DNA of 54,236 nt, filler included, from Stramenopiles sp. TOSAG23-3 (Eukaryota), in assembly GCA_900128585.1 (NCBI GenBank). It is 4 parts of 4 records of this genome, joined end to end, with 100 filler letters (N's around TTAATTAATTAA, not from the genome) between each part and the next. Parts side by side here need not be neighbours in the genome. Positions count along the whole stretch, not along the records: positions 25,089 to 49,959 come from LT642297.1; 3 more parts are not named here. One strand, given 5' to 3'. The position numbers were made by a program, and so were the translations under genes. The notes beneath the pieces were generated by a model that saw only the letters and a list, made by a program, of their open reading frames with translations, ran no database searches and was not told where the DNA came from. Positions 4,884 to 43,501 of this stretch are shown here, piece by piece; the first letter of the stretch is position 1, and every line of letters begins with the position of its first letter.

Positions 4884-7800
4884 ATGGAAGATCCGGAAGA
4901 TGAAATGTGCATTGCCGCTCTGTTTGAAGAAGAGCCAAAAGTGCAGGGGCCAAACGCAGCTGGGAATACTTCCAGTAAGTCGGGGGAGGCAAGCACGGGC
5001 GATTCTACCGTAAACGACGCACTAGTTTCTGTTGAAGATATATCTCTAGGAAAATTGTTTGGTCGCCCGACGAAGGCTGACAGCGACACCTTTAAGCGGC
5101 TGCAGGAGGCCTTGGCCTCTTCAGTAACTCCCGAGGACTCCACTAGTGAAGAAGACGGAGGTTCTCAACTTGCAAGGACAATCCAGGATTCTTTCGCCGT
5201 GTCCCCCAGAGCCGTATGCTTGGCCGGGGCCCACGCGTCACTGACAATAGGCGACGCAAAAGTTCTGTCAGGCGTGCTGCGGAAAACAATTGGGCGCGAG
5301 GCCTTCTTGAACCCTTGCTACGCATTTGTTGATAGCGCCTTAAAGGAACTAGTTCGGGCTTTCCGTTTTTCTGACTTGGAAGCCGTTGTTACTAATTTGT
5401 CTCCGCATGTTCTGGAATTTTTGTTGGAAATGTATGTGAATTTTGAAGGAAATAAGCGTGATGATGTTGAGGCTGGCAACAAAATGCAATCGATAAAAAA
5501 CTTGACAGATCTCTTCGCGGGTCTTGTGCTGAGTTACCGGCACTCTCCAGAACTTTTAGTTGGATTGAAAAGCAAGTTGAATGAGCTGGTAAAGAATATT
5601 CCTCGTACGACATTAGAGTGGAAAACGATTGCTTGCAGCAAATTCAAGCGCATCGTCATAGATGGCCCGGAATTCTTGGGAGTACCAGACGCGGCAGACA
5701 AAGACTCCACCGCAGAAAAAAGCAACGGCATCAACCCCCAAGGCACCGAGATGATGACAAAGTCAGCCCATGATCGGCCGATGTCGCCAACATTGAAGGC
5801 ACAATGCGCAACAATACAAGAAATGGGGTTCTCAGTACATCAGGCACGGCGTGCACTGCAAGAAAAGAAGGGGAACGTCGACAAAGCTATGAATTGGTTG
5901 TTGAATCTCTCAGATAAAGAACGTGACGAATTGTGTGCACATAAAGACATTCCTAGGAACAAAGAAGACGCGTCGGTTTCACCTGAAAAGTCCAGTGACG
6001 CGAGCCCCAAAGCAGAAAGTCAAAATGTTGGAACCAAGGAGATCGCCGAAAAAGAAGGGGACAAGGACGGCGATGGCGAAGGCGTATGGTGTTTCGAGAG
6101 TTCAATTATTACGACGATGAAATCGTTGCTGATAGTATTCCGGGGTTATCGGGAGTCCTTTACCGATCTTTACAACGATTTGATACCGTATTATGATTTG
6201 CTAGCGCAGTACCTTAATGTAGAAAAGGGCGGGACAGATAGGGAAGTTGCAATAAACACACACACGTTCCATGCTTGGAACAAACCGGAAAACAGTTATG
6301 GTGCGAACGACGAAGTCCTTGTTGCCCCGCCATGGTTTGAAGGCTTGTTCTTGTCGGGAATCGGGGAGCATAGCCCCGGGCCCTCTTTGGCCATAAAAGC
6401 CACTGGAAAATTTGGAGGACATGCTGTTGATGGCTCAGTACATTCTCTAGAAAACGGCGTTCGTTCGTCCCTGTCCGGGTTCTCCACACTGCAAAGCAGA
6501 GACGGAGGAGATGAGTACAATGATTTTCAAGGCTGCCTTGTGACCCCAAGGAACACTTGTGAGTCAGTATCCTTCAAGCAGTTTGGGAACAAAAACGCGC
6601 TTTCTGGATGGCACTCATCTGCCGGCTCTTTTCGCAGTGTATACGGAGTGCCCAGATCAGTCACATCGAGTACACGCCTTACTTTTGGTGGTACAGTTGC
6701 GACGCCAAACAAAATGTATGTAAATAGTAGTGAAAATTATCTCTTTGTCCATGAAAGTCCGTTCAAAACGGTATCTTCGTACGAGACATTTGGCATGTCC
6801 CTTTCTGTCAAGGTTTCACCAGAGCTGGTTTTTGAAGCGAAGAAGTTTGAAGAAGAGACCGACGAGGATGAAGAAAGCCAGAGCGAAAACCCAGAAAAAG
6901 TGCAGGTTCCAAAACTCTTTTGCGGAATTTTTGTTTTGGAAAATTGTGGTGTCGCCCTCACCCCTGGGATGCACGTTGTAGCTTGGAGACGCCACAAAGG
7001 GGCCGACCACCGAGACACGGGAAACCCGCAACCTAACAACGCAGAGACCCCGGGCAATGCGGACAGGGACTCCCCCACCGGAGTGCAGCTCACGGACGAC
7101 TTGAAGATGATGGTGGACACAGGAATAATTACTAAGGAACAAGCTTACGAAATGATGGGGGTTGACATGACGCCAAGAAGTAACGATCAAAGGGACAAGA
7201 ACAAAAAAGACGATGAGTCGAAAGATAAGCCTTCTGGAATGAGTGGGGAAACATTTTCTTTTGTAAAGAGCCCTTGCAAATTAACAGCAGGGAAATTGGT
7301 CAAAATTTCTGTACTTTTCGATGGCACAACATTACACCTTATGTTAGACGATGAGTTTGTTGCGGAAGCAAAAGCTGAAGGTGCCGCCATAGCGACACAG
7401 GGCGGTAGTTCCGGTACAATCTTACCAGCATCGTCACTCTCTCTTGGCGGGGTGCCAACATCCAACCCTTACCTCCGTGCCTCGGACCAAACGCAGCGCG
7501 AATTGCCGTATTTCACAGGGACTATGTGCGCAGCGGTACTGACTATTGACATGGAGCGCAAATGCCAATGGCCGTTATCGTCTATGACGCTGGGAATAGA
7601 CTTGGAGGGAAGTGGGTTTCACTTATCAATGTGGAAAAAGGGCGCTACCGATTTACGGAACCTTCCAATACTTGACGTGGGAAGAAAACATCAATTTCAA
7701 GTGTTGGAGAAGACGCCAGTATCACTTGATACCTTCCATTCTCGTTTTAGCAACAGGTGCCAATTGGCAGGTGTAGCGAAAGCTTGTGGCAGCAAAGTTG

Positions 7801-10800
7801 TGCTGGGCGATAGGGGCGGTGCGCTCTGGTTTTCCGAACGCCACGAGGTGACTGGGGGGTTTGATTTCTCTTGCGTTTGCAATCCTGCTCCGAAGGACAA
7901 CAACGAAACTCCAATAGATGAGGGGGAGCACAAGCTAACTATGCTAAAATTTGAGGATGGCACATTGCAGAAAGATTCAAGCGAGTTGCGGCATCCAACA
8001 ATCGATGCAGAATATACCATCGTTCTTCGAAACTGTTCCGCATGGCATATACGACCTCTTAAAGGGATCGCAAAGCATGTTGGGCCTGAGCTCGAGTTGA
8101 AATTGGACTCATTTTGGGACCATCCAATCAAACACGAGGCCAGTGGAAATAACGTTGGGGCAACATCTCCGTTGGCTGAGGTACCCAGCGCAGAAGGTAC
8201 AGAATCAAAATTAGAGGGGAATGTTGAAAAAGTTAAAGTCATGTTGGATAAAGGTATGGACCAGCAGGCGGCCTTGAATAAGTTAAAGAGTGATGGTTTG
8301 GACACAAAAGAAGCCATGAGAGCTATACAGAAAGCCCTTTCTCTCACGTTTGCCAACAAAGACGAATCAGCTGCTTTATTATCAAGCGAAACGTTTGCCA
8401 ACAAAGACGAATCAGCTGCTTTATTATCAAGCGAAAAAGAAGCAAGCAAGAAAGATGATTTCCCCGTGCTTCTTCGCAGTAGCTTATATCTAAATGTTCG
8501 TGTACAAGACAACCTTGCGAGCGTCCGGCTGGAGTACGAAAAGAGTGGGTGTAGCAAAGTTCTTTGTCGCGCGTTTAACATTTCTGGGTTGAATGCGTTT
8601 GAGCCAACTCTTCGGTACCGCCCAAAGTTGGGCGATTTATCTCCCGCAAGACTCATCGTCTCCTTCGGGTGTCGAGTAGTTGTTGAAACTGAGTTTGACA
8701 TTATGAAAGAAATATTTTCAGGCACACTGGCGCCAGGTTTAGGAATGTGGGCTGGAATTCAAAATGGAGCCGAAACCCAATGGAAGGCGTTAGAGGTTAC
8801 AAAGCTAGCTTTCAGAGGGCGCTCAATACCGTTGTTGGATACTATTCCCAAAGGAAACGTTAACGAAGAACAAAGTGTTGGGCCACAGAAACCATCGGGC
8901 GGTACAATGCGACAAAAAGGCACAAAGATAACCTGCTGCTACGATGGTGTAGATTCCCCCACAAACATTGTGCAACCCGTAAACGAGACCATTCGTCTTG
9001 ATTTTGACGTCGGTACAACTCCTTTTCACAAAGACGCATGGGTTGGTATGTATGTTCCTGGCTCGAAAAATAGTAACTTTATTAAGCACGTTCCATTCGA
9101 CAGTGCCTGCAGACAAATGCTAGAGAAAGGGACTTTTCGGGTTGCAAAGAAAAATTGTTGGATAGAATTTCGCCTTTTTAGAGATGTCTCTAGTAGCGCA
9201 CCAGTAGCGGCAAGTGGCGCGTACTTTTTTAGCCACCAGAAAATTGGGATGCCTCTTACCTCGAGCCAGCTTGCGACGCAGGCTCGTCTGGAGAACTTGA
9301 TCTATTCGAAGAACCCTACTATCTCGGAAAGTGTATCTTCGCACAACGAAGAAAAAAAGACAACGTCAACCTATTTAGAATCGTTGGTTAGTCTGCATTC
9401 AAAGAACTTCGCAAAACCTGACTCGGGCGCGGGTTTTAACAACGATTATGGGTGTTCCTGGGACACTACTATGGGTGAAATAAGCATGACAACCGATTCG
9501 GCACCGACTTTGGGTTATACTGTTAAAGGGGAATTTCAAACCATGACCAACGATGGTGGCAAAACGAACCAGTCTAATCTACCAGGAACAGTACACGGAC
9601 TTGTCAGACCCGCGAAAAACGCGACAGGGAAAAATTGGTCATTTAGGGGAAGCTGGGTACCAGTCGGACAAATGATACCCCAAGTCTGCCATTGGCATTA
9701 CAATGGCCCGTCCAGCAAGGCGACCGGCAAATGGTACAAGGGTGATATTTCTGGTAAGTGGACTTTGAAGAAAGCTCAATTTGCTGATTTTTTCCGCTCG
9801 ACATTCCATCATTCCGGTCTTTTGAACATGTCAAACGACTTAGTGAATGTTTGTTATCAAAATAGTGTAATGCAATGTTTGTACCATTCAGATTTTATCC
9901 GAGAAATGATGTTCTCTCTGGACGACGCATTAGGAGCAGAAAAGGCGATGGGCACCGAAGAGGCCAAATCCTCTGAGTGTGCTTCAACAAATCTATTTCA
10001 CGACTTGAAACGACTGTACGGTGCGTTGACGTTTGCGCAAAGATCGTCACAAGCGTCTCATGAGTTGCAAAACGAAATAGTAAAGGTGTTCGAGAAAGGA
10101 AAGCAACAAGATGCGCATGCTTTTTTGGTCTATCTCATCGACAATTTGTCCACCGCTTTGGAGAAAATGGACAGTGATGAAGAGGGCAACTTCATCAAAA
10201 ATAATTTTGAAGGGAAAAACGGGTTTATCATGAAGCGACGCGACACGGGTGTGACGTGGGTGACAGACCAAGACGTATTTGTGAACTTAAACGCGTCGTT
10301 GCCCCAGCGATACGCACCGATAACGAAATTAGTCGTCCTTACAGAGAAAGACAAGTCTACCATGGTCCTGGAGCAAGGCTTTGAAATCTTGAAAGGAACC
10401 ATCAATGGAAAGGATGGTTCGAACAAGAAATCCATTGGGATATATCGGGGCGAAGCGCACGGTCTTCCCGTGACAAAATTGAAAGTTTTAACTTTTAAGC
10501 ACGACGAGGGCATTGTTGTGCCAGACAATTTCAAAATGTTGATGACAAATTTGCATCCATCAACTGCTGCAACAAGCGATCGTATTTACATAGCTTACGA
10601 GCAAGGAACTAACAACATCCCAATGGTGGAAATGGCGTTGGCATTTGGAGGCAAAAAGGCCAAGGTTTCACCGGGTTTTACCAAAGTACCGGAAGCGTTG
10701 AATGGTGGATTTGAAGGATCTTCCGTATATTTGTCCTTCAAGAAAGACCAGGCTTCGGTACGAGATTTAAAGATATCTAAAGAAAGCCCACGCGACTACA

Positions 10801-13800
10801 AAACTTTGAAAGTAAATCTCCATTCCATTGGTAACGTGGACCTCACTTATGCCGAAGCCGCAAAAAACAAATTGAAAAATAACAAGGTCATCTTTTCGGA
10901 ACAAAAAAAATTAAAAACTATTAAAGGTGGGCCAGAGCGAATTACCCCAACAAAGTGGGGATTGTACGTTGCAAACCAAGAGCAAGTAAACAGCGACGAT
11001 TTTGAGCATTTAAGGATTCAGTCTATTTTAGATTTGGGAAATGACCCAAAGATTGATGCAAAGTATTTTGGGGTGGGCTTTACGGACCATTACTTGAAAC
11101 TAGACGTTTCTTCTGGAGAACTTTTCAACGACAACGTCCAGGAGGCTTTGAAATTCATTTCAACGGAAAAGCTCCGTAGTCGGTCCGTTTTAGTATTTTG
11201 CAAGGATGGGCAAAGTGACAGCGTTTCAGTGGTAATGGCATATTATTTGCAGGCCAGAGAGTGGCCTCTTAAAAAGTCATTTAGGAATTTATTGCGTATG
11301 CGTCATGTTTCCACAACGTCGCGTCCATCACAAGAGTTATTTGAACGCTTAGCTGCTATGGAATCACGGAAATTAAAAAAGTCTTCCATAACAATTGAAG
11401 AATACGAATGTGAAAAAGGCCAAGGGACAAGGAAAACGGATTCCACTTCGTACCCCGCTATGGATACCCCGGACGAGGAAGATGAAAAAATAAAAACGCC
11501 AACTCCGCCAGACATCGAAGGGAGTCCGCCAAAGGGCCTGGAAGAACCCCAAGAGGGTTACATCCACGTATCGTATGGGGGGAAAACTCCAGTAATTACT
11601 TCAATCTCAGTAGTCGAACCTTCCGACTCGATCGTCGATAGCGTCGATGACATGGATTTATGCTGTAAACTTCCGAATGAAAAATTTATCGCGATTAAGC
11701 GTGGAAACGGGTGCCCAGTCACCAACGTTCAGCTCTTTAGAGCGCCTCACGATGTTCCTCGGTTTCAAAATTACGAGGTATTGGATTTGATCGACCATGA
11801 CCCTAGTTTTGATGCAACAGAACCATTGTCTGGAATCTGGAAGCCAACAGAAGAGAGCAAAGTGAAAGATGTTTTCCATTTTCAAAAGCCTGAAGGTGCG
11901 GTGGCAGAAACGATGACATTGGTTCACGGTATCGCCGAAGGGGGTGCTTTTATCCGTGGATTCGTCAAGGAAACCGTTGATGAAAACGGTGATAGTTCGT
12001 GGGTGCTTAACGGCATGTCGATAGAGGATAGTGGCGTTGAGCCTGTAACATTATCCTTCCGTGAAAATGAATATTCGTGCACGATAGATAAACAAAATTA
12101 TAAATGCGAGAAGAGCCTAGAAGCACCCAAAATTGGTGTCCCTTTGACGGGTGTAATGTTGTCCAAAACTTCTGGAGCAGAGTCTTTGCCGGCAGGATTC
12201 TCCTGCGAGGAGAATACCGTTGGAAACGAACCTGCAAATTTTGGATCAGAATCGGAACCTTTGTACCTTTGTACTAGACGCGGAGGAGATTTCAACCCGA
12301 TTGCAGAAGTGTCCATAGTTTGGAATGGAATAGAGAATATACCGCCCAAAGCAATTGTTGTGGAAGGCAATTTAAATATTACTCAACAAGGCTATGGCGC
12401 GGAGGTAATTCTTTGTTACACACTCTGCACTGAAGATCATACAGACGCCATAATGGATTTAAAAATTAGCAAATATGCGGACAAGACGTCGAAAAAAGGC
12501 TTGACAAAAATCATGACAACCAAGAGCTTGTCAATGGATGCTAATTTAAACCAAAACCCGTCGTATCCAGATTTTTACCTGAGCTTCAAAGTAGGGACGA
12601 TCAACAAAAAGAAAAAATCAGTCGACCACGTGATAAACAGCAGTTACATCCTGGAAGACAACAAAAACAAGAAGATGAGAATTAACCTTCACGCCGTTGG
12701 CCTGGTGCAATGTTACCCCGTTTCAGCAGCGTACAATCTCGGAAGCCCGGAAAATTATAGGGCGGCAATGAAAGGGTTTATCTATAAAGAGTCTAAGGAC
12801 GACCCGGAGTGGCAAGTTCATGGTGAGTACCAGTCTACACGCGACAAGGGAGTGACACGCTTCAACGTGGACAGCCGCTTGAGCACTGTCTCAGGGGTAT
12901 GGGGGAGAAAAGGTCAAAAATTGAGTCTTGTGAAGGACTCATACCTGAAACTAGCTTATCAACGAGATTACAATTCAGATTGGGCGAATGGGGTTGAAAT
13001 ATTTTCTGGGCGTTGCCGTGGAAACCGTATTGACGATATGTTAGCGCAAGATGTCTCTGTGCTTGGGGGCCAAAACTCATATACAGACGAGGAGTCGGGA
13101 AAGAAGGTGGAGGTTACACGAACGGCAATGGTGGTGCAACCCCCACGATTTTTGATTGTCAGCATTGAACGGTCAAAATGGGATGTAGAGAAGCAGAAAC
13201 CGGTCAAAGACACGCGAGATATTGACCTTGAACCAGTTTTAAGTCTCCCAGGCCAAAGAGACGCCTCTATGTTCGACGAACAGGAAGGGTCTCATACTCC
13301 CAAGAAGAAATCTTCTAGACGATATGGCTTGTACGGTATAGTTGTTCACAGTGGCACAACAGCGAACTCTGGGCATTATTACGCTTACGCGCGGCATAGC
13401 AATGTGCCCGATTTAGACCGACAAGACTCTTCGTCAAGCCCATGGATGCTGTTTAATGATGAGAACATCCAAGAAGTTAGGTACAAAAAAATGAAAAAAG
13501 ATATCGAGAGCAAGAAGAACCACAGCGCATACTTGTTGTTTTACAAGGAGTTGGATTCAGACTCGGATCCCGTTGTTTCTTCTCCCGGGGAAGACCGACC
13601 TGGGCCGGTGGCACGATTTCCAGCATGGATCAAAACTTTAGTAGATAGCAATAGAAAGGAAGTATTTCGCTTTTTGCAATCTTTCCAAAGCGGCTTTTAC
13701 GAGAGCTGGTTGACCGACGATATTTTGCACCGTGCACTGCGTCATGATGCAGAGGAGGTAGCAAGCGAAGAGGATTTCCCCACTTTAGTGCGTGGCTTGT

Positions 13801-13811
13801 CTTTGGATTAA
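4884..13811 (+). CDS. Giant multidomain ubiquitin-specific protease (peptidase C19) with UBA, ConA/LamG-like, SKICH-like, MABP-like and DSP-like regions
   Basis: 2975-aa ORF. UBA: IQEMGFSVHQARRAL..NVDKAMNWLL. Cys box GLLN..VCYQNSVMQCL (~9816-9880), QQDAHAFL, His box YGLYGIVVHSG..SGHYYAY (~13323-13390) and WMLFND. Confidence 0.9.
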   Translation: MEDPEDEMCIAALFEEEPKVQGPNAAGNTSSKSGEASTGDSTVNDALVSVEDISLGKLFGRPTKADSDTFKRLQEALASSVTPEDSTSEEDGGSQLARTIQDSFAVSPRAVCLAGAHASLTIGDAKVLSGVLRKTIGREAFLNPCYAFVDSALKELVRAFRFSDLEAVVTNLSPHVLEFLLEMYVNFEGNKRDDVEAGNKMQSIKNLTDLFAGLVLSYRHSPELLVGLKSKLNELVKNIPRTTLEWKTIACSKFKRIVIDGPEFLGVPDAADKDSTAEKSNGINPQGTEMMTKSAHDRPMSPTLKAQCATIQEMGFSVHQARRALQEKKGNVDKAMNWLLNLSDKERDELCAHKDIPRNKEDASVSPEKSSDASPKAESQNVGTKEIAEKEGDKDGDGEGVWCFESSIITTMKSLLIVFRGYRESFTDLYNDLIPYYDLLAQYLNVEKGGTDREVAINTHTFHAWNKPENSYGANDEVLVAPPWFEGLFLSGIGEHSPGPSLAIKATGKFGGHAVDGSVHSLENGVRSSLSGFSTLQSRDGGDEYNDFQGCLVTPRNTCESVSFKQFGNKNALSGWHSSAGSFRSVYGVPRSVTSSTRLTFGGTVATPNKMYVNSSENYLFVHESPFKTVSSYETFGMSLSVKVSPELVFEAKKFEEETDEDEESQSENPEKVQVPKLFCGIFVLENCGVALTPGMHVVAWRRHKGADHRDTGNPQPNNAETPGNADRDSPTGVQLTDDLKMMVDTGIITKEQAYEMMGVDMTPRSNDQRDKNKKDDESKDKPSGMSGETFSFVKSPCKLTAGKLVKISVLFDGTTLHLMLDDEFVAEAKAEGAAIATQGGSSGTILPASSLSLGGVPTSNPYLRASDQTQRELPYFTGTMCAAVLTIDMERKCQWPLSSMTLGIDLEGSGFHLSMWKKGATDLRNLPILDVGRKHQFQVLEKTPVSLDTFHSRFSNRCQLAGVAKACGSKVVLGDRGGALWFSERHEVTGGFDFSCVCNPAPKDNNETPIDEGEHKLTMLKFEDGTLQKDSSELRHPTIDAEYTIVLRNCSAWHIRPLKGIAKHVGPELELKLDSFWDHPIKHEASGNNVGATSPLAEVPSAEGTESKLEGNVEKVKVMLDKGMDQQAALNKLKSDGLDTKEAMRAIQKALSLTFANKDESAALLSSETFANKDESAALLSSEKEASKKDDFPVLLRSSLYLNVRVQDNLASVRLEYEKSGCSKVLCRAFNISGLNAFEPTLRYRPKLGDLSPARLIVSFGCRVVVETEFDIMKEIFSGTLAPGLGMWAGIQNGAETQWKALEVTKLAFRGRSIPLLDTIPKGNVNEEQSVGPQKPSGGTMRQKGTKITCCYDGVDSPTNIVQPVNETIRLDFDVGTTPFHKDAWVGMYVPGSKNSNFIKHVPFDSACRQMLEKGTFRVAKKNCWIEFRLFRDVSSSAPVAASGAYFFSHQKIGMPLTSSQLATQARLENLIYSKNPTISESVSSHNEEKKTTSTYLESLVSLHSKNFAKPDSGAGFNNDYGCSWDTTMGEISMTTDSAPTLGYTVKGEFQTMTNDGGKTNQSNLPGTVHGLVRPAKNATGKNWSFRGSWVPVGQMIPQVCHWHYNGPSSKATGKWYKGDISGKWTLKKAQFADFFRSTFHHSGLLNMSNDLVNVCYQNSVMQCLYHSDFIREMMFSLDDALGAEKAMGTEEAKSSECASTNLFHDLKRLYGALTFAQRSSQASHELQNEIVKVFEKGKQQDAHAFLVYLIDNLSTALEKMDSDEEGNFIKNNFEGKNGFIMKRRDTGVTWVTDQDVFVNLNASLPQRYAPITKLVVLTEKDKSTMVLEQGFEILKGTINGKDGSNKKSIGIYRGEAHGLPVTKLKVLTFKHDEGIVVPDNFKMLMTNLHPSTAATSDRIYIAYEQGTNNIPMVEMALAFGGKKAKVSPGFTKVPEALNGGFEGSSVYLSFKKDQASVRDLKISKESPRDYKTLKVNLHSIGNVDLTYAEAAKNKLKNNKVIFSEQKKLKTIKGGPERITPTKWGLYVANQEQVNSDDFEHLRIQSILDLGNDPKIDAKYFGVGFTDHYLKLDVSSGELFNDNVQEALKFISTEKLRSRSVLVFCKDGQSDSVSVVMAYYLQAREWPLKKSFRNLLRMRHVSTTSRPSQELFERLAAMESRKLKKSSITIEEYECEKGQGTRKTDSTSYPAMDTPDEEDEKIKTPTPPDIEGSPPKGLEEPQEGYIHVSYGGKTPVITSISVVEPSDSIVDSVDDMDLCCKLPNEKFIAIKRGNGCPVTNVQLFRAPHDVPRFQNYEVLDLIDHDPSFDATEPLSGIWKPTEESKVKDVFHFQKPEGAVAETMTLVHGIAEGGAFIRGFVKETVDENGDSSWVLNGMSIEDSGVEPVTLSFRENEYSCTIDKQNYKCEKSLEAPKIGVPLTGVMLSKTSGAESLPAGFSCEENTVGNEPANFGSESEPLYLCTRRGGDFNPIAEVSIVWNGIENIPPKAIVVEGNLNITQQGYGAEVILCYTLCTEDHTDAIMDLKISKYADKTSKKGLTKIMTTKSLSMDANLNQNPSYPDFYLSFKVGTINKKKKSVDHVINSSYILEDNKNKKMRINLHAVGLVQCYPVSAAYNLGSPENYRAAMKGFIYKESKDDPEWQVHGEYQSTRDKGVTRFNVDSRLSTVSGVWGRKGQKLSLVKDSYLKLAYQRDYNSDWANGVEIFSGRCRGNRIDDMLAQDVSVLGGQNSYTDEESGKKVEVTRTAMVVQPPRFLIVSIERSKWDVEKQKPVKDTRDIDLEPVLSLPGQRDASMFDEQEGSHTPKKKSSRRYGLYGIVVHSGTTANSGHYYAYARHSNVPDLDRQDSSSSPWMLFNDENIQEVRYKKMKKDIESKKNHSAYLLFYKELDSDSDPVVSSPGEDRPGPVARFPAWIKTLVDSNRKEVFRFLQSFQSGFYESWLTDDILHRALRHDAEEVASEEDFPTLVRGLSLD
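8346..8435 (+). repeat. Perfect in-frame 45-bp tandem duplication (TFANKDESAALLSSE x2)
   Basis: 8346-8390 is identical to 8391-8435. Confidence 0.97.
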
Positions 13812-22947: not shown

Positions 22948-24213
22948 TCAATTTTTTTTATTCTTAAATAAACTCACCACTGGGTATATAATGGAGATGA
23001 AAAATGCTCTTAAGAGTGTTGACGACAAATTGGAAGTGAAGGAAATCCCAAGAATACTTATCGCTCCATATTTTTCTTTCAAGCCACAAAACTCCTGATA
23101 GTCAGCAGCAAATTTTTCTGGATCAATTTCTTGGATTTTTGGGAAAGATATAATGACTGCTCTCTGAAGAGAATTATGCTGACGGTCAATTCGACTAAAC
23201 ATATAAAAGTAAAGGAATAGTAAGAATGTCCATATAACGCAAGGCACAAATCCTACATCCTGCTGTCGTAAACTACCATGAAATACATCGTTTGCAAAAT
23301 TCACCAAATAGTATGACAAATTTAAAATCACGACAATTGCAGTCGAAATGGCAATTGGTGCGAATCTATCGGCCCATAGATTCAAGGAAGAAATAACAAG
23401 CCTGTATCGTTTAATTAATTTCCTTGAACCAAAGTCAGGATCATTTTCAACTTTTTCAGATATTCGCTTAACATTTCGAACATGTACATATTCAATGTTC
23501 ACAAAGCCAATACCACACATACAAATGGTGTAACATGTAGAATATGCATAGACAGTATTGGGGTCCCAAAACAAAATCTTGGGTATCCACCCACCGTTAT
23601 CGAGATATATATATGCATATATCATTCCAATGAGCCAAGTGATAACAACATACATATCAACAATTTTGCGTTTTCTGACAACTGTGCTGTTGTCACCTAC
23701 CTTGATGGAATATAAAGCATTCTCGGCGTTAGAATAACGGAAGCCAAACATAAAACCGAAGCAATGTGCCGATAGCCACATGAAATTCATAGCCAACGGT
23801 AAATCTGGGTCATTTTGCCAATCAACAGAAAAAGCATGAGAGATCATGCCCCATCCGTTTTGCAAAGCAAAATTTAGTTGAGCCAACGTAAATAAAATAT
23901 ACGAAAGAGTTATCCAGGAAGTTGTCACCGAACGTAGTCGATCAATAACATATTGTGGAAGCTTCACCAAGCCTACTGCCAAGATAAAATCAACAGCCCA
24001 GCTTAACAAATTAGCAAGCTTGGGAGTTCCACTATCCTCCTCTTCCACATTTTTTAAGTGTCTCAAACTATATTTTACAATGATAGAGTCGTCGCATAGG
24101 CCACAACTTTTATTTTGTGAATGTTGTTCGTCTGAAAGTTTTATGCTTTCCCGTACAGGTTCCCCATTCTCTAAACGGGAATATGGACCAGGTGGATTTT
24201 GTACGTGAGTCAT
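22948..24213 (-). CDS. Multi-pass membrane protein, candidate gustatory-receptor-like (GRL/DUF3537-type) 7TM ion channel
   Basis: 421 aa with about seven hydrophobic segments, a long charged helical linker between TM4 and TM5, and a split C-terminal TM7 (YGAISILGISFT..LLRAFFISIIYPVVSLF). Confidence 0.6.
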   Translation of the reverse strand: MTHVQNPPGPYSRLENGEPVRESIKLSDEQHSQNKSCGLCDDSIIVKYSLRHLKNVEEEDSGTPKLANLLSWAVDFILAVGLVKLPQYVIDRLRSVTTSWITLSYILFTLAQLNFALQNGWGMISHAFSVDWQNDPDLPLAMNFMWLSAHCFGFMFGFRYSNAENALYSIKVGDNSTVVRKRKIVDMYVVITWLIGMIYAYIYLDNGGWIPKILFWDPNTVYAYSTCYTICMCGIGFVNIEYVHVRNVKRISEKVENDPDFGSRKLIKRYRLVISSLNLWADRFAPIAISTAIVVILNLSYYLVNFANDVFHGSLRQQDVGFVPCVIWTFLLFLYFYMFSRIDRQHNSLQRAVIISFPKIQEIDPEKFAADYQEFCGLKEKYGAISILGISFTSNLSSTLLRAFFISIIYPVVSLFKNKKN

Positions 24214-36687: not shown

Positions 36688-39600
36688 ATGATGGGTTCGA
36701 TAGGATTGCGGAAGATACCGACGGGTTCGGTTGTATTGCTGTTGGTGTACTTGATAATACTGTCGATGGGTGCGATCATCGCTGAGGCGGCGTATGAAGA
36801 TAATTGCCACGAACACTGCATACATTGCTCCGCAGAGGACGGCGGAAAAACGTGTAAAATGTGCCGGCACAACTTATACTTGTACAACGGAACGTGCGTT
36901 TCCAAATGCCCCTCGGGCTATAAAGAAACCGCGCAGCACATCAACGGTGACCAGGGGGCTTATGGAAGAGAGCGAGGGCTTCGATGCCAAGACCATTTAT
37001 TGACTGGAAATGTTCTCGTGGCCGTTGGAGAAGACAAAATGGGGGGTGTTCCTCCTTACCCGGTAACAAATGTCGTTCAATTTGTTGTTGCCATAAATTG
37101 CGTCGCCGCTTTGAGTTCGGATGGTACAGTAAAAGCGTGGGGCAACTACTATTTGTATGGTGGGGCGCACTGCGGTGGTGTTGCGCCACCAAACCTGAAA
37201 AACGTTACACAGTTGTATGCATCAGGATTTGGTGTGTGCGCACTGCATGTGAATACGTCAGTCACGTGCTGGGGGAGTGAGGGCGGCTCCCAGAGCCAGA
37301 TGCACTGGCAATCGTCTGTCGGAACGCTGGATAAAGATTTGACTAATATAAAGCGCCTTTTCTCCACTAAATTGTGCTTCATTGCGGTGGATAATACCGA
37401 CAAAGTTGCACATTGTTGGGGAGACAATAACGGTCATTCCCCGCACGAAAACCACTGCTGTGCTGGTTTCAACGCTAGCGAAGCGATAAATGTGGATACC
37501 GTGATCACGAATGACAACGACTTTGTCGTGATAAGAAAAGACAAGACAATGTACTCATTTGGGGTTTCGTTTCAAAACGGCGACGGAGCGAGAAACTACA
37601 GAGGGTGGACGAACGTGAAAACTGTTGTCAGCGCAGCAAGAAATGGGTTCATAGCTATCTTAGAAGACGGGACCGTCGATGCGTGGGGACAACAAAACGA
37701 AAGGGTGCTAGGCACACATCGAACTCCAGTCCCAACGACGACTCAACATCAAAATCTGTTAGTAAATATTAAACACGTTTACGTAAACCAAGGCGCTTTT
37801 GTCGCGCTCAAGAACGACGGAACAATTGCGCACGCCTGGGGCAATAAAAACCATGGTGGCTGTGGTGATACAAACGAGTGCACGAGTTCAAACACAGCCC
37901 CTCCAAATTTGGGGGGTAAAAGAGTTGTTAACGTCGTGAGCACCTCCAGCGCCTTTGTCCTCATGCTCGAAGACACGGAGGTGCTTGGATTTGGCAGGTT
38001 GGGGTACGGTGGAGACGTTCCACCTAACACGAAATGTATTTCCGTCGTTGGCTCGTATTCTGCTGTGGCATGTATTCAACCGAATACAATCTTAGTTGCG
38101 TGGCCTAAGAAGGATCCCAACGACCCTTCTGGGCAAAACTACGGGGGGGATGTTACACATTATTCGCCGGCGAAAACAGTTACAGCAGTTAAGTCTGGTG
38201 GGAGTCTAGGCGACCCGAACGTACAACACTTCATTGCACTGACAACAGATAAAAAGGCAATTGCCTGGGGGCAAGACCCGAGTTCCACAATACCAGCATC
38301 ATTTACCGCGTCTGGGCAAAACCTTATCGAAGTGTTCGCATTATTGAAAGCTTACATCGCCATCAAAAACTGTTTTGGTGAGTACTATGCTGACAGCAAC
38401 AATATGTGCCAACATTGCCCGGATGGGTACTCCTCAAACGACGGAGCATCAAACGTTGGGCTCGCATCGTGTAAAGCATGCTCACCTGGATATTATCGTG
38501 TGGGCACAACGGTAACTTGCCAACCGTGTGAGAGGAGTAAGTATTCGTTAAACGAAGCATCAAAGGAATGCAATCAAAACACGCCTGGGTTTTACCTTTA
38601 TAATTGTTACGATAGCGACAATTTCATTGGGTGTGGGGCTATGAATGAGTGTGAACGAGGGAAAATGTGCAATGGCACAGGTGCGATGGTAGAGTGCCCA
38701 TTGGGTAAATACCAAGGCACGCAGGCAAACCAAAAATGCGATGATTGCCCCACGGGCAGGTTTGTTAATGTTTCGGGAGCACTGGATTGCATAAAATGTG
38801 AAAAGGGTAAAATGTCATCAACCGCGGGCGCAAGCAGTTGTAAGTTTTGCCCAGATGGTGAAGTGCCCGACGAAGAGACCCGAAGTATTTGTATTAAATG
38901 CTTGGCAGGGGAGTACATGAATATCGCTACTCGCTTATGCGACGTCTGTCCGTCCGGCCATAGCTGTAAGCGCGGGACCGTTACTCCCGAGATATGTGCC
39001 AAAGGAGAGTACGCACCATTGGGCAGTGCAGATTGTCAACGCTGTGACCTTGGGAAATTTAACCCGTTGCCTAAGCAAAGTGAATGCTTGGACTGCTTCC
39101 CTGGCAAGTATCAAGATGATAAAGGTAAGGACAGTTGCAAAGATTGTCGTGTTGATACCTTCAGTAATGCAAGAGGTAACGTCGCACCTGAAAAATGTGC
39201 AAAATGTTTGGCTGTTCGGCCGTTAACAAATACCGGTGGGAAAACCGGTGCAATTACGGAAGATTCATGCGGTTGCGAAACAGGCACGTATTTGAATCGT
39301 GACGCGGTCGAAAAATCGTCGTTGTGCGTGGAATGCCCCGTAGGAAGCTCTTGCAAGAAATTTAATAATTCGATAGCAACAATTGGAACCCAAGTTGGGT
39401 ACTGGCGGTCGTCCAAAGACTCCCTCGCATTCCATTCCTGTGAGGACTTAGTCGGCAGCGCTCATTGTTTGGGTGGCGATGCCCTCAACCAATCCCAATG
39501 CAGAGAAGGACACGAGGGGCCACTGTGTTCAGTGTGTAAAACGGGATTTATTCGACAGGGGGGCGTTTGCCAAGCCTGTGGAAACGATGAGGGCGTTACC

Positions 39601-41190
39601 GGTATTGCGATGCCTGTCGTTGGTTCGATTTTCTTGGTTCTTTTTTCTATTGCTATTTCTTATCAGTACATGACCGCGACAAAATCTGTCGGAAGGTCAA
39701 CCGTTAAGAACAGTGTGCTTGAGGAAAATCTAATGGCTGCAAGAAACAATGGTTCGAAAGTGGTTCCGCCATCGGGTGTATCTGCAAAGGGGGGTGAAAC
39801 GGAGGAAGACGAAAACCAAGAAGAAGACGCCGAAGGGGAGGAAACCCTAACAAACGACGAGAACGGAGCCGGTGACGACGATACAATTGGCGGGGTGATT
39901 ACGGATGGGGCTAAAGACACAATGAATGAAAAGGCTGAGGAAACAATGCATGATGGCGAAGAGGTTGGTGAGCTGGACGAAGAGGTGTCTTTGAATGTTA
40001 ACACCCGCAGTGTTAGCGCAAGGCTGCACGAAATCAGAGAGGCAATCGATGAATTCTATTCAAAAGTCGGTGGGTTGGCAAAAATATTTGTCAGCTTTAT
40101 TCAGATATTTACTCACTTGGCCGTAACATTTACCATTCCATGGCCAAAGGAATTCCTTGCAATGACAAACTGGCCCATTTTTAAAGTGTTAAACATAGAT
40201 TTTGCGGCTATTTTAGGGGCGGTAAATCCGTGTACAATGTATACCCCCTTTTTGCAAAGGTTTGTATACCATATTTGTTTGATGCCCATTCTCATTTTCA
40301 TTTTGCTGTTCTTCAGTATCGTCATTGGCGTTGCAGTTACCAAGTGCAAGCAAGGGGAATTGGAAAGACGGGAACGGAGGGCCATCAACCAGAAAATGTT
40401 AAAGCTCATAAACGTGATCGTGTTTTTAATGTACCCCGGACTCTCTGTGAAAATATTTTCGGTATTTAAATGTGTCGAAGTCGACAGTGGTGAATTCTTT
40501 TTAGCAAACGATATGAGCATTCAATGTTTCAAACCACTTTACAACAGCTATGCCACAGTCGCTGTCAGCTGCGTTGCATTCTACGTAATTGGAATACCCA
40601 CGTTGTCCTTGCTTGTGTTGTACAAAAATCGCAAGATCATTTCAAGCTCAGCAAAAACGCTGAAAAAAGAAAAGCTTGATAAGAGCATTGGGAATCTGTA
40701 CGCTCAGTATAAACCGAAGTACTACTGGTGGGAATGTTTGGAAATGGTGAAAAAGATGATGCTGACCGGCGGTTTGATTTTGCTGAGCCCAGGGTCATCA
40801 GCGCAAATATTGCTGGGAATTCTTGTGGTGCTGATGTATTTGTGCTTGGTGTTGAAGTATTCTCCCTACAATGAAGACGACGATGATTTCTTGCAGAACG
40901 TGGCTACGGGCGCCATACTGTTGACATTGATTGGTGGTCTTGCTTTGCGGGCGGATGATGCTGGTGAAGGGTATTACGAGAGCAAAGTAATGGGCAGCCT
41001 GTTCATTTTTATCAACGTTTCAATATTCGTGGCGTTTGCATACACTTTTGCAAGAAGTACTGCAGGAATTCGAGGGCTGATTGCTGGAAAAAAGAAACAG
41101 GGGCCTCGGGCGAGAAATAAATTGTCTTCGGTTCTTCCCGACGAGGGCAGCGGTTTTGTCACACAACCCCCGCCCTCACCAAAGCCGTGA
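36688..41190 (+). CDS. Cell-surface protein: signal peptide, RCC1/BLIP-II-like repeats, ephrin-receptor-like Cys-rich repeats and a multi-pass TM C-terminus
   Basis: Hydrophobic N-terminus, repeats such as AFVALKNDGTIAHAWG, many CxxCxxGxY repeats, GYWRSS..CREGHEGPLCSVC, and a TM region with YKPKYYWWECLEMVKK. Confidence 0.85.
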   Translation: MMGSIGLRKIPTGSVVLLLVYLIILSMGAIIAEAAYEDNCHEHCIHCSAEDGGKTCKMCRHNLYLYNGTCVSKCPSGYKETAQHINGDQGAYGRERGLRCQDHLLTGNVLVAVGEDKMGGVPPYPVTNVVQFVVAINCVAALSSDGTVKAWGNYYLYGGAHCGGVAPPNLKNVTQLYASGFGVCALHVNTSVTCWGSEGGSQSQMHWQSSVGTLDKDLTNIKRLFSTKLCFIAVDNTDKVAHCWGDNNGHSPHENHCCAGFNASEAINVDTVITNDNDFVVIRKDKTMYSFGVSFQNGDGARNYRGWTNVKTVVSAARNGFIAILEDGTVDAWGQQNERVLGTHRTPVPTTTQHQNLLVNIKHVYVNQGAFVALKNDGTIAHAWGNKNHGGCGDTNECTSSNTAPPNLGGKRVVNVVSTSSAFVLMLEDTEVLGFGRLGYGGDVPPNTKCISVVGSYSAVACIQPNTILVAWPKKDPNDPSGQNYGGDVTHYSPAKTVTAVKSGGSLGDPNVQHFIALTTDKKAIAWGQDPSSTIPASFTASGQNLIEVFALLKAYIAIKNCFGEYYADSNNMCQHCPDGYSSNDGASNVGLASCKACSPGYYRVGTTVTCQPCERSKYSLNEASKECNQNTPGFYLYNCYDSDNFIGCGAMNECERGKMCNGTGAMVECPLGKYQGTQANQKCDDCPTGRFVNVSGALDCIKCEKGKMSSTAGASSCKFCPDGEVPDEETRSICIKCLAGEYMNIATRLCDVCPSGHSCKRGTVTPEICAKGEYAPLGSADCQRCDLGKFNPLPKQSECLDCFPGKYQDDKGKDSCKDCRVDTFSNARGNVAPEKCAKCLAVRPLTNTGGKTGAITEDSCGCETGTYLNRDAVEKSSLCVECPVGSSCKKFNNSIATIGTQVGYWRSSKDSLAFHSCEDLVGSAHCLGGDALNQSQCREGHEGPLCSVCKTGFIRQGGVCQACGNDEGVTGIAMPVVGSIFLVLFSIAISYQYMTATKSVGRSTVKNSVLEENLMAARNNGSKVVPPSGVSAKGGETEEDENQEEDAEGEETLTNDENGAGDDDTIGGVITDGAKDTMNEKAEETMHDGEEVGELDEEVSLNVNTRSVSARLHEIREAIDEFYSKVGGLAKIFVSFIQIFTHLAVTFTIPWPKEFLAMTNWPIFKVLNIDFAAILGAVNPCTMYTPFLQRFVYHICLMPILIFILLFFSIVIGVAVTKCKQGELERRERRAINQKMLKLINVIVFLMYPGLSVKIFSVFKCVEVDSGEFFLANDMSIQCFKPLYNSYATVAVSCVAFYVIGIPTLSLLVLYKNRKIISSSAKTLKKEKLDKSIGNLYAQYKPKYYWWECLEMVKKMMLTGGLILLSPGSSAQILLGILVVLMYLCLVLKYSPYNEDDDDFLQNVATGAILLTLIGGLALRADDAGEGYYESKVMGSLFIFINVSIFVAFAYTFARSTAGIRGLIAGKKKQGPRARNKLSSVLPDEGSGFVTQPPPSPKP

Positions 41191-41399
41191 GGCCGAAGTA
41201 GGAGGCTGCCGCAGTGTACAATTATTCAGAGAGACCCTCGGTGGGGTTGGGTACATTTAAAAACCGTTAAAAAAAAAAAGTTTAGACATTAATTAAAAAG
41301 TCGTTAAAAAGGATTTTATCGGTACCTATCGCACAGCTCGAAGCTTTCTAATAACGTTTTTACAAGGTTGTTGCAACATCTGATTTATTTCCGAAAGTG

Positions 41400-42581
41400 T
41401 CAATTATTTCCCAAAAGCAAAGATGCATTTTTATACGCATCATGGGTAGGGCATCTCACATGCACGACGTCACCACTGCCATTCTTCGCGGAGCCCTCCC
41501 CCCATTTCTTGTAAAGTTTGTCGTAGTATTCCAGGAGGTATCTCCCTGCCATAGGAAAGTTTTCTGCTTGCAAAGCTCGTATGATTTGCCTTGACCGTTG
41601 GTTTCCAAGTCTCTTCTCCAACCCCCCCTTCGGCCTGTCTATGCAGTGGATCAAATCGTCGACACTCCCGCCACAGTAGTCCTCCACCAGCCGCAAAATA
41701 CGAAGCGATTGCTCCATTTCAAGAACAAAGGTTTTCCCATTGGAGGGCGTTGAAATCCATTGCTGAATACTCCATGGAATGCTGACTTTGCCAATGTGGT
41801 TGCCCTCGTGCTCCAACCAAATAGGCTTGGTTTTCCTCTCCCCTGTTGCTTTTTTCCGAACGTGAAGAATTTTCTCCAGCTCCATCAAAACTTGGTTTTC
41901 GAACATTTCTGTGCTCGGCTGTGGCGCTGTCTCCCCTATTCGTCCAAAGGCCGACCCTTTATGCCTGGCCAGAGTTTCCAAGCAGACAATATCTTCACCA
42001 AATTCCTTCAAATGAGATAAAATTGCGGTTTTTCCGACGCCAGTATGGCCAGCAAGGACATTTATCGGGATGATTCCTCCAAGGCGTCCATCAATGGATC
42101 CGTCGGGACCCAGCGAGGAGACGACGTGGCCTCGAAAGGATTTGTACCCGTTATGAAGTTTTCTTGATTTGTAGCCGCACAAATTTAGCAACCAGCTCAT
42201 GGACTCGGATCGCATCCCTCCTCGGGAGCAGTAGACAAAAATGTCCGTTCCATCTTCAGGCTCTGACGCGTGTTCCCTTCTCATGCATTCCAGCAGCTTT
42301 GGTAGTTTCGGCCCAACGTGAGACAGCCCAACCTGTATTGCTTCTGAGCGACCCCTTTCCTTGTATGCAATTCCTACTTGTTTCCGACAGCTATCGTCGA
42401 GCAACGGCAGCGATATGGCCCCAGGAATGTGACCTTGTGCGAACTCTGATGGCGACCGAACGTCTATCACTTTTGCATTCCTAGTCTCCAACGGGCAGCT
42501 CAAAGCTTGCAGCACAGTCGATATCTTTACCCTCGAAGCGTTGACACTAAGCCACCGAACGACGTGCCGCCCGCGCTGCAT
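41400..42581 (-). CDS. selU: tRNA 2-selenouridine/geranyl-2-thiouridine synthase (SelU/MnmH/YbbB) homologue
   Basis: Rhodanese domain (IDVRSPSEFAQGHIPGAISLPLL, VYCSRGGMRS, GYKSFR) fused to a P-loop domain (GHTGVGKT, LETLARHKGSAFG, QPSTEMFEN, YYDKLY). ATG at 42581; the track start is TTG. Confidence 0.92.
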   Translation of the reverse strand: MQRGRHVVRWLSVNASRVKISTVLQALSCPLETRNAKVIDVRSPSEFAQGHIPGAISLPLLDDSCRKQVGIAYKERGRSEAIQVGLSHVGPKLPKLLECMRREHASEPEDGTDIFVYCSRGGMRSESMSWLLNLCGYKSRKLHNGYKSFRGHVVSSLGPDGSIDGRLGGIIPINVLAGHTGVGKTAILSHLKEFGEDIVCLETLARHKGSAFGRIGETAPQPSTEMFENQVLMELEKILHVRKKATGERKTKPIWLEHEGNHIGKVSIPWSIQQWISTPSNGKTFVLEMEQSLRILRLVEDYCGGSVDDLIHCIDRPKGGLEKRLGNQRSRQIIRALQAENFPMAGRYLLEYYDKLYKKWGEGSAKNGSGDVVHVRCPTHDAYKNASLLLGNN

Positions 42582-42778
42582 TTCTCCCACTGTACGTATA
42601 AATATCTCTTCAACAATGCCGCGCAACTAAATCATTATTTCTTCCACCCAAATAAAAATGATGTTCGTGTGAAATTATTTCATATGCCCTTTTAATAATA
42701 AGTTATAAACGGTTTTGAGAATTGTATAATAGTCTTTTATAATAATTGTCGTGTATGTATATACAGTTTTGTTCTCGA

Positions 42779-43280
42779 AGAAAAAAAAAGAAGAATTAAA
42801 TATTCAGAAGAAGAATTCAGAAGAAGAAGAAAGAAGAAGAAGAAGAAAGAAGGAGGAGAGATAATAAAAAATGCGAGAAGAAGAAGAAGAAGAAGAGGCA
42901 AAACCAACACAGGACACAGTGGCACACAGGCAGATCAACAAAACAAAAAAGAAGGCACAGAAAAGAAGGAGAGAGGAGGACAATAATGAAGTCAAAGAAG
43001 AAGAAGAAGAAGAAGAAGAAGAAGAAGAAGGTGGCGCTGGAAGGAAGAAGAAAAAAAAAAAAAAAAGATCGAAAAAATTATTATTAATTACAATAATATC
43101 CAATGCTGTGATTATCTTATATACGAGGATATATTTAAATTTTATCTTTTGATGTTAATCCTATGTTATTATTATCAACATCGCCTCATCGGCCCCTTCT
43201 TCTTCTTCTTGTTTGTTGTTTTCCTTCTCTTTTTTTTTTTTTTTAAATTTATATTCTTCTTCTTCTTCTACTTTTTTTTT
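42779..43280. repeat. GAA-rich tract followed by a TTC-rich tract in a divergent intergenic region
   Basis: (GAA)n and poly-A at ~42780-43075; (TTC)n and poly-T at ~43195-43280. Confidence 0.9.
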
Positions 43281-43501
43281 AAATAAATAATATAATAATA
43301 ATAAACATAGATGTGGGTGAAGCAAGAGAGTGTATCTATACCGTTGGAACTGTCGTCTATATAGTAGTCTAATCATGTTTGACATTTGGAATTTTAAATA
43401 AGAGTTCAGATTACAAACAGATAAGGCATATCATACCTTTCCTCCAATCTCCCGATAAAGGCACACACACAACAATAGTATTAAAAATTCAGGCCCAAAC
43501 A

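Follow-up and report, generated by a model that had tools for sequence, protein, structure and literature searches.

An intact tRNA 2-selenouridine synthase gene in a eukaryotic nuclear context, from a clade common to marine protists and with a candidate organelle leader

What is a gene for a tRNA 2-selenouridine synthase (SelU, also MnmH or YbbB) doing in the DNA of a eukaryote, is it likely to work there, and in which compartment would it act? These questions are raised by positions 41400 to 42581 of a stretch of 54,236 nucleotides (hereafter the window), which consists of parts of four records of assembly GCA_900128585.1 of Stramenopiles sp. TOSAG23-3 joined end to end. In passages of a review, selenouridine is presented as prokaryotic (PMC9312934), and ybbB serves as a prokaryotic marker in sections of the main text and of Supplement S1 of a further study (PMC4561486). 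We find that the window gene is an intact orthologue of SelU/MnmH and that its context is eukaryotic and nuclear. We further consider it likely that this is a functional nuclear gene for a canonical two-domain tRNA 2-selenouridine synthase, a member of a marine-protist clade and not recently imported; its catalytic activity, substrates, selenium supply and compartment are what we infer from the observations below.

The SelU coding sequence and its conserved residues

The gene and its parts are as follows.

41400..42581, minus strand: SelU/MnmH coding sequence (CDS), a single unbroken open reading frame (ORF) of 393 codons plus a TGA stop, without intron
42528..42581, minus strand: leader, codons 1-18 (MQRGRHVVRWLSVNASRV), basic and acid-free, a candidate mitochondrial presequence that bacterial SelU lacks
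42114..42527, minus strand: rhodanese domain, residues ~19-156 (PF00581; matched to the structure 3g5j by sequence and by fold)
42228..42230, minus strand: codon of the catalytic cysteine C118, in the motif C-S-R-G-G-M-R-S, invariant in 45/45 sequences
42027..42050, minus strand: Walker A motif GHTGVGKT, residues 178-185, pattern G-x4-GKT (sequence and 45-sequence alignment)
41403..42068, minus strand: P-loop domain, residues ~172-393 (the NCBIfam alignment extends to residue 363)

The first in-frame ATG (42581-42579, minus strand) is preceded by a stop codon and the next methionine is residue 100, so that residue 1 is the sole start that keeps the domain whole. The first-pass annotation had described a rhodanese and P-loop fusion carrying YCSRGGMRS and GHTGVGKT, and both motifs are indeed found in an intact ORF. 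Its assignment to the SelU family is likewise borne out by profile hidden Markov models, as the protein exceeds the cut-offs of the NCBIfam equivalogs NF008750 (282.1 bits, cut-off 241) and TIGR03167 (263.9 bits, cut-off 219.75). The archaeal models TIGR04568 and TIGR04569 give weak matches, far under their cut-offs. The split SelU of Methanococcales comprises the same two functional modules, both of which are required for selenation according to the part of PMC4830565 that cites Su et al. 2012, but there they are encoded by two genes, whereas the window holds one fused ORF.

In a Pfam scan, the rhodanese family PF00581 was the only match (residues 30-150, E 2.4e-12). Within this domain lies the helical insertion typical of MnmH (residues ~60-103), which aligns over its full extent with bacterial SelU and 3g5j; R66, G70 and A81 of the insertion are invariant in our alignment of 45 eukaryotic and bacterial homologues, and helices are modelled at 63-76 and 78-103. 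An insertion of ~33-36 amino acids is given as the mark of the SelU rhodanese domain, absent from single-domain rhodaneses, in the relevant section of PMC4830565. PDB 3g5j, which shows the N-terminal domain of a SelU-like protein from Clostridioides, is the sole solved structure related by sequence (E 1.4e-17). Foldseek aligned the N-terminal domain of our model to it with a target-normalised template-modelling (TM) score of 0.91; the C-terminal domain of the model gave weak matches to P-loop folds of the adenylate-kinase type.

Conservation extends over both active sites. Around the catalytic cysteine, C118, R120, G121, G122, R124 and S125 are invariant in all 45 aligned sequences, Walker A residues G178, T180, G181, G183, K184 and T185 are each conserved in at least 90% of them, and E257, E259, Y352, Y353 and D354 of the P-loop domain are invariant. 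Overall, the window protein retains 31/31 invariant and 30 near-invariant columns, and the AlphaFold2 model built on the same alignment has a mean predicted local distance difference test (pLDDT) of 90.0 and a predicted TM score of 0.89. The resemblance to SelU/MnmH/YbbB of Escherichia coli and Salmonella thus comprises the two-domain architecture, the rhodanese insertion, the cysteine loop, Walker A and an alignment over the full length; unlike these bacterial genes, the window gene is nuclear, belongs to a separate eukaryote clade and encodes ~18 extra basic residues at the N-terminus.

Kinship and eukaryotic setting

Of 8000 candidates scored in a word-indexed protein search, 4852 reached E <= 0.001; an exhaustive search gave 3872 representatives, 509 of them at E <= 1e-30. 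After the identical entry, the best match is a marine cluster (P0003; 49% identity, seven members of 371-431 amino acids as called), followed by 12 matches at 40-44% identity (P0004-P0015) that include Effrenium voratum, Prorocentrum cordatum, Durusdinium trenchii and Symbiodinium natans, the entry of the last being machine-annotated 'selU'. The best bacterial matches, mostly from Bacteroidota, have ~36-46% identity. Look-ups of further clusters added Gymnodinium smaydae, Cymbomonas tetramitiformis, Prymnesium parvum, a Picozoa single-cell assembly, MMETSP transcripts and Emiliania huxleyi, whose homologue XP_005762427.1 is labelled 'hypothetical protein'; two marine clusters (P0234 and P0240) each occur on more than 100 contigs.

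Three trees were computed, all unrooted and with bacterial sampling made of nearest matches: a FastTree tree of 133 rows (12 labelled eukaryotic, 41 unlabelled proteins and 80 named bacterial loci) and two quick IQ-TREE trees of 63 rows, one under LG+C20 with posterior mean site frequencies (PMSF) and one under LG+G4, supports being those of the SH-aLRT (Shimodaira-Hasegawa-like approximate likelihood-ratio test) and of FastTree. A eukaryote-like group of 27 rows was recovered with support 99 in all three. It consists of the window protein, nine eukaryote-named rows, four rows from eukaryote transcript or protein collections and 13 unnamed rows, the last having been called 'eukaryote-like' from the first tree, which makes the grouping circular for those rows. 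The named eukaryotes in the sample (dinoflagellates, haptophytes, a green alga and Picozoa) all fall inside it, whereas none of the 33 named bacterial loci of the 63-row trees does, and a Kofleriaceae protein is also outside. The window protein pairs with P0003 (support 99-100), and this pair is sister to a group of dinoflagellate proteins (support 89-92, unstarred). The clade splits into sub-clades of 17 and 10 rows, which suggest paralogues because haptophytes occur in both. Judged from its sequence, the window SelU is thus no recent bacterial import and is a member of a clade common to many marine protists. As the clade holds many named protists together with abundant marine clusters, eukaryotic SelU is widespread in databases. 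Of the original description of a bacterial-type SelU in a eukaryote, the real and intact orthologue stands, but 'bacterial-type' does not hold in the sense of a recent transfer.

Architecture varies within this clade. A C-terminal domain of the glutathione-dependent formaldehyde-activating type (GFA, PF04828), a Cys/Zn domain fused to the end of dinoflagellate SelU, is present in 11 of the 12 matches P0004-P0015 according to precomputed annotation, and Pfam confirmed it in four of the 21 proteins scanned (P0004, P0122, P0123 and P0132). The dinoflagellate SelU-GFA proteins, with that of Gymnodinium smaydae among them, are the nearest named relatives of the window protein and have the motif WxEHE in common with it; they differ by the GFA domain and by an acidic 'FPxhP' N-terminus without leader. 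The proteins of Emiliania, Prymnesium, Cymbomonas, Picozoa and MMETSP, with P0234 and P0240, lie in the same 27-row clade and many are longer. Three of the 21 proteins scanned (P0124; P0125, from Cymbomonas; P0134, from Picozoa) have TPR repeats in a long insert that separates the rhodanese domain from the P-loop domain, and the Prymnesium protein (P0145) has a long inter-domain insert in which Pfam detected no TPR, plus a proline/tyrosine-rich tandem repeat. In the window protein, neither the acidic FPxhP N-terminus, nor a GFA domain, nor a TPR insert was found, which makes it a minimal form. Since P0003 is also without them, these three traits do not define the clade. P0003 shares with the window protein the minimal architecture, the loop YCSRGGMRSE and a basic, acid-free N-terminal leader, but its leader is longer, with ~35 amino acids ahead of any acidic residue, and shows no sequence relationship to that of the window protein.

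Two further observations concern the family at large. One protein of 708 amino acids (P0239), which groups with bacterial rows, joins an N-terminal SelU rhodanese to AIR-synthase-type domains of the SelD kind and is a SelU-SelD fusion. Giant viruses or phages were considered as a vector for the spread of SelU and rejected: a scan of viral contigs gave three loci with rhodanese fragments of 30 residues and no SelU.

The physical setting of the gene was assessed from the following features and from contigs of other assemblies.

36688..41190, plus strand: gene of 1500 amino acids with RCC1 repeats, ephrin-receptor-like repeats and a TRP-like membrane domain (Pfam); context, not the enzyme
41191..41399, no strand: AT-rich spacer of 209 nucleotides between the converging 3' ends of the 1500-amino-acid gene and SelU, spanned by contigs X3 and L001
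41384..41389, minus strand: AATAAA, 11 nucleotides past the SelU stop, a possible but weak poly(A) signal (sequence motif)
42582..43378, no strand: upstream, divergent-promoter region with low-complexity AAG/CTT repeats (sequence, tandem repeats)
42627-42635 (ATG-ATT-TAG) and 42675-42683 (ATG-AAA-TAA), minus strand: two upstream ORFs (uORFs) of two codons (sequence)
42995-43030, no strand: perfect (AAG)12 microsatellite, the site where independent assemblies diverge

The window contains 19 long ORFs, all intron-free and encoding eukaryotic proteins (Pfam). Two contigs bear on the left side of SelU: X3, of 2634 nucleotides, from a marine metagenome of another study, spans 40215-42805, and L001, an independent metagenome contig of 9079 nucleotides, is 99.4% identical to window positions 36715-43030. 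Both run continuously from the 1500-amino-acid gene through the 209-nucleotide spacer and across SelU. The junction of SelU with its left eukaryotic neighbour is thereby corroborated by two independent assemblies and verified. The best non-self relative of that neighbour (60% identity, 97% query coverage) comes from a eukaryote protein collection.

On the right, L001 leaves the window sequence exactly at the end of (AAG)12, at position 43030, a further contig (X4) departs after 42794 and X3 ends at 42805. No contigs were placed on 42812-42995, where the breaks fall in repeats, which is not evidence of absence. The link of SelU to the right half of the window, the APC2 side, is accordingly uncorroborated, and the disagreement between L001 and the window is either strain-level variation or rearrangement, or a chimeric join at the repeat in one of the assemblies. 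This breakpoint leaves the eukaryotic status of SelU unaffected. The first-pass annotation had set SelU on one contig with APC2 and GnT-I, and had named a chimeric contig among the findings that would refute it: its left join is upheld by X3 and L001, unbroken in both and in favour of the setting of SelU, but the APC2 side is not, as L001 diverges there at the microsatellite. The nearest named relative of APC2 is that of the labyrinthulomycete Hondaea fermentalgiana (46%), other matches being closer (57-59%), and the inference from APC2 that the host is probably a stramenopile is weakened because APC2 lies in the uncorroborated half. Beyond the breakpoint, L001:1-2758 carries two ORFs that the window lacks; the first, of 257 amino acids, has no Pfam match, and the second, of 469 amino acids, has a weak NUDIX match.

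The composition of SelU is that of its surroundings. Its GC content is 0.50, or 0.54 at third codon positions (GC3), and its relative synonymous codon usage correlates at 0.60 with that of the other 18 ORFs, whose own range is -0.16 to 0.72. The AT-rich, host-style flanks described at first reading were recovered as a GC content of 0.30 in non-ORF DNA versus ~0.50 in ORFs throughout the window. The AATAAA behind the SelU stop counts for little, because the motif is common in these AT-rich spacers (97 matches in the window versus 63 expected).

Contigs from RNA libraries also fall on the gene. A metatranscriptome contig (X16) covers 41724-42761, and a poly(A)-selected library (X19) holds two contigs inside the ORF, at 41805-42034 and 42196-42362, with zero mismatches. 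These contigs are consistent with expression of SelU, but it has to be set against them that RNA-library contigs may contain DNA and that these runs were found by using the SelU gene itself. The two uORFs both lie within 180 nucleotides upstream of the SelU start, in a stretch covered by X16.

These data bear directly on the explanation that a bacterial contaminant gene was misassembled onto eukaryotic DNA. The departure of L001 at 43030, which implies a rearrangement or a chimeric join to the right of SelU in one assembly or more, speaks for such an artefact, as does the fact that all named nearest non-eukaryotic relatives are bacterial. However, X3 and L001 are unbroken on the other side, codon usage, GC content and flanks are host-like, the protein groups with eukaryotic SelU outside all named bacterial rows, and a poly(A)-selected library yields contigs on the gene; we regard this explanation as close to refuted.

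Nor does the gene look like a relic left by an old transfer, non-functional and in decay. L001 and the window disagree at three of the 1182 positions of the SelU CDS (0.25 per 100 nucleotides; two synonymous changes and I163V), a rate like that of the neighbouring CDS (0.22) and ~8 and ~19 times below those of the 3' spacer (1.9) and the upstream region (4.7), respectively. Such low divergence, with two-thirds of the changes synonymous, fits purifying selection, the numbers being small. In favour of a relic, the function of the window SelU is a prediction from sequence and model, but with the ORF at full length, every invariant column retained, a confident model and RNA-library contigs over the gene, we hold it to be very unlikely.

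Predicted chemistry and compartment

The chemistry expected of the window protein is that of bacterial MnmH, for which the relevant sections of PMC4830565 report the following. In Salmonella and E. coli, selenation depends absolutely on the rhodanese cysteine C97; in Salmonella, an intact Walker A is needed for geranylation and is probably the site of geranyl diphosphate. Geranylation is independent of the catalytic cysteine, so that the two activities are separable, and selenation probably proceeds through the geranylated tRNA. The enzyme modifies (c)mnm5s2U34 of tRNA-Lys, tRNA-Glu and tRNA-Gln. As the window SelU retains every residue that corresponds to these sites, it most likely performs the same chemistry in two steps. 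The enzyme would S-geranylate 2-thiouridine at wobble position 34 of tRNA-Lys, tRNA-Glu and tRNA-Gln, after which Cys118 of the rhodanese domain would use selenophosphate and the geranylthio group would be replaced by selenium.

Several findings weigh against so canonical an enzyme. Three clade-specific MnmH sub-models stay under their cut-offs (NF008752, 202/266; NF008751, 162/361; NF008749, 122/548). A serine follows the catalytic cysteine in the window protein and in P0003, where most relatives, bacterial ones included, have tryptophan (or alanine), and the Walker-B-like motif reads WLEHEG, a change seen in the sub-clade of the window, for WxEDES in bacteria. In addition, reading through TGA codons across the window yielded no selenoprotein candidate: every odd ORF obtained either coincided in part with a known gene or was a mere extension past a stop, and the intergenic gaps held none.

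The changes close to the active site would suit a neofunctionalised SelU-like protein, with fold and motifs kept and the selenium role lost, that acts as a geranyltransferase only or as a sulfurtransferase. In this respect, geranylation needs Walker A and not the cysteine, and relatives have gained the extra GFA and TPR parts described above. However, although the cysteine is dispensable for geranylation, the loop C-x-R-G-G-x-R-S is invariant in bacteria and eukaryotes alike; the equivalog cut-offs are exceeded; and SPS2 and selenoproteins are scattered over stramenopiles, alveolates and green algae in the portions of Mariotti et al. 2015 that treat them (PMC4561486). We consider neofunctionalization improbable and retain the two-step selenouridine synthase as the preferred function.

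The compartment in which this synthase would act is a separate matter, on which the N-terminus is the principal evidence. It reads MQRGRHVVRWLSVNASRVKIST, with its first acidic residue at position 32, and the leader of 18 amino acids contains four K/R, one H and no D/E; the absence of acidic residues noted at first reading is therefore real. The window protein has 39 residues before the DVRS motif, versus a median of 20 (interquartile range 20-21) in 105 mostly bacterial proteins, and R17 of the leader stands two residues ahead of the homologous domain. In the AlphaFold2 model, residues 1-15 are without secondary structure (mean pLDDT of the first ten, 57), the first strand is at 16-18 and the first helix at 20-28. 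The leader of P0003 is R/S-rich and acid-free over ~35 positions, and is not alignable with that of the window protein.

Elsewhere in the clade N-termini are acidic (Effrenium, Prorocentrum, Durusdinium, Symbiodinium, Cymbomonas, Prymnesium, Emiliania, P0234 and P0240). A motif of the form (D/E)FPxhP precedes the first helix in the dinoflagellate, Cymbomonas, Prymnesium and several unnamed proteins and is missing in the window protein and P0003; 'FPxhP' is frequent in the acidic N-termini of the sub-clade to which the window belongs. Within the clade, the window lineage and its sister would thus have replaced an acidic N-terminus with a basic, acid-free leader, a lineage-specific change that would look like a gain of mitochondrial targeting. 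An organelle-targeting peptide, as proposed by the first-pass annotation, is no more than plausible on this comparison of sequences, and we put the chances that the leader is a mitochondrial presequence at about even.

Against such targeting, the leader is short, with only ~15-18 residues free before the first fold element; in seven of the 18 other ORFs of the window the first 24 positions are likewise free of acidic residues, and two have at least four K/R and no D/E in their first 20 residues. A location in the matrix would moreover demand selenophosphate within the organelle.

The same enzyme could instead be cytosolic, its leader being no signal, and act on mcm5s2U of tRNA-Lys, tRNA-Glu and tRNA-Gln with selenophosphate from a cytosolic SPS2, as is presumably the case for most eukaryotic members of the clade. 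Most of these start acidic and without leader, that of the window is merely ~15-18 amino acids long, and acid-free N-termini are common among the window ORFs. Besides, a 2020 review places a selenouridine in eukaryotes and treats as an open question whether they have the selenation process of bacteria (PMC7694415). On the other hand, the window protein and P0003 have both exchanged an acidic for a basic, Ser/Arg-rich and acid-free N-terminus, which at ~35 amino acids in P0003 is presequence-like. As to the substrate, the cmnm5s2U-type side chain is found on mitochondrial tRNAs and is not known from cytosolic ones. The characterised bacterial substrates are of this (c)mnm5s2U kind, as stated in part of PMC4830565, which also speaks against a cytosolic action. 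Weighing these points, mitochondria have about an even chance of being the site of the window SelU, the cytosol has a lesser but substantial one, and the remainder goes to another or a dual location. If the leader is a presequence, the substrates would be mitochondrial cmnm5s2U-type tRNAs.

With regard to supply, no SelD/SPS2 candidate was detected within the 54-kb window (Pfam scan of ORFs, TGA read-through), and a tRNA scan of the window gave no genes. Sections of Mariotti et al. 2015 (PMC4561486) report that some protists gained bacterial-like SPS fusions by transfer.

Implications and other features of the window

A paper describing a eukaryotic SelU was not found in full-text literature searches, which have subscription journals outside their coverage; the 'SelU' of PMC2398784, considered as a synthase, was rejected, the name there being that of selenoprotein U. 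The clade is well represented in databases and apparently undescribed in the literature searched. The novelty suggested at first reading is therefore reduced by a clade that is well populated and in part machine-annotated, but persists in so far as no describing paper came to light.

It is tempting to go further, and to propose tentatively that Se/geranyl modification of the wobble uridine is not prokaryote-only, that marine-protist SelU are the missing eukaryotic selenouridine synthases, and that the window lineage and its sister enzyme were redirected to mitochondria by a new presequence; taken as a whole, we regard this proposal as possible rather than probable. If true, a mitochondrial SelU would imply that selenophosphate or geranyl diphosphate is supplied within mitochondria. 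The marine-protist clade offers a concrete candidate enzyme for the unexplained selenium-modified tRNA of eukaryotes, in which case marine plankton could need selenium for tRNA as well as for selenoproteins. The question is testable in culturable members of the clade (Emiliania, Prymnesium and Symbiodiniaceae); the window organism is uncultured and not the best entry point. What the window adds is a minimal-form member, from a probable stramenopile, with a candidate organelle leader, suggesting that the compartment may differ between lineages.

The other genes of the window include a mitochondrial carrier, ATP23, a giant EF-hand/FN3 protein, a bifunctional aspartokinase-homoserine dehydrogenase, GnT-I, a USP/UBA/DSP protein of 2975 amino acids, APC2, a diphthamide synthesis protein (Dph) and Hsp70. 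The right half of the window beyond SelU carries a caspase-like gene and a GFO/IDH oxidoreductase, followed by APC2, Dph and Hsp70. The 2975-amino-acid protein (4884-13811, plus strand) combines UBA, a dual-specificity phosphatase and a C-terminal ubiquitin hydrolase (UCH), an unusual architecture. An ORF of 421 amino acids at 22948-24213 (minus strand) has a GC content of 0.37, a GC3 of 0.34, a codon-usage correlation of -0.16 and no Pfam match, and may be no real gene or may be compositionally foreign. Finally, an ORF of 296 amino acids without Pfam match (50458-51348, minus strand) is antisense to the diphthamide-synthesis gene (50512-51825, plus strand) and is probably a spurious shadow ORF.

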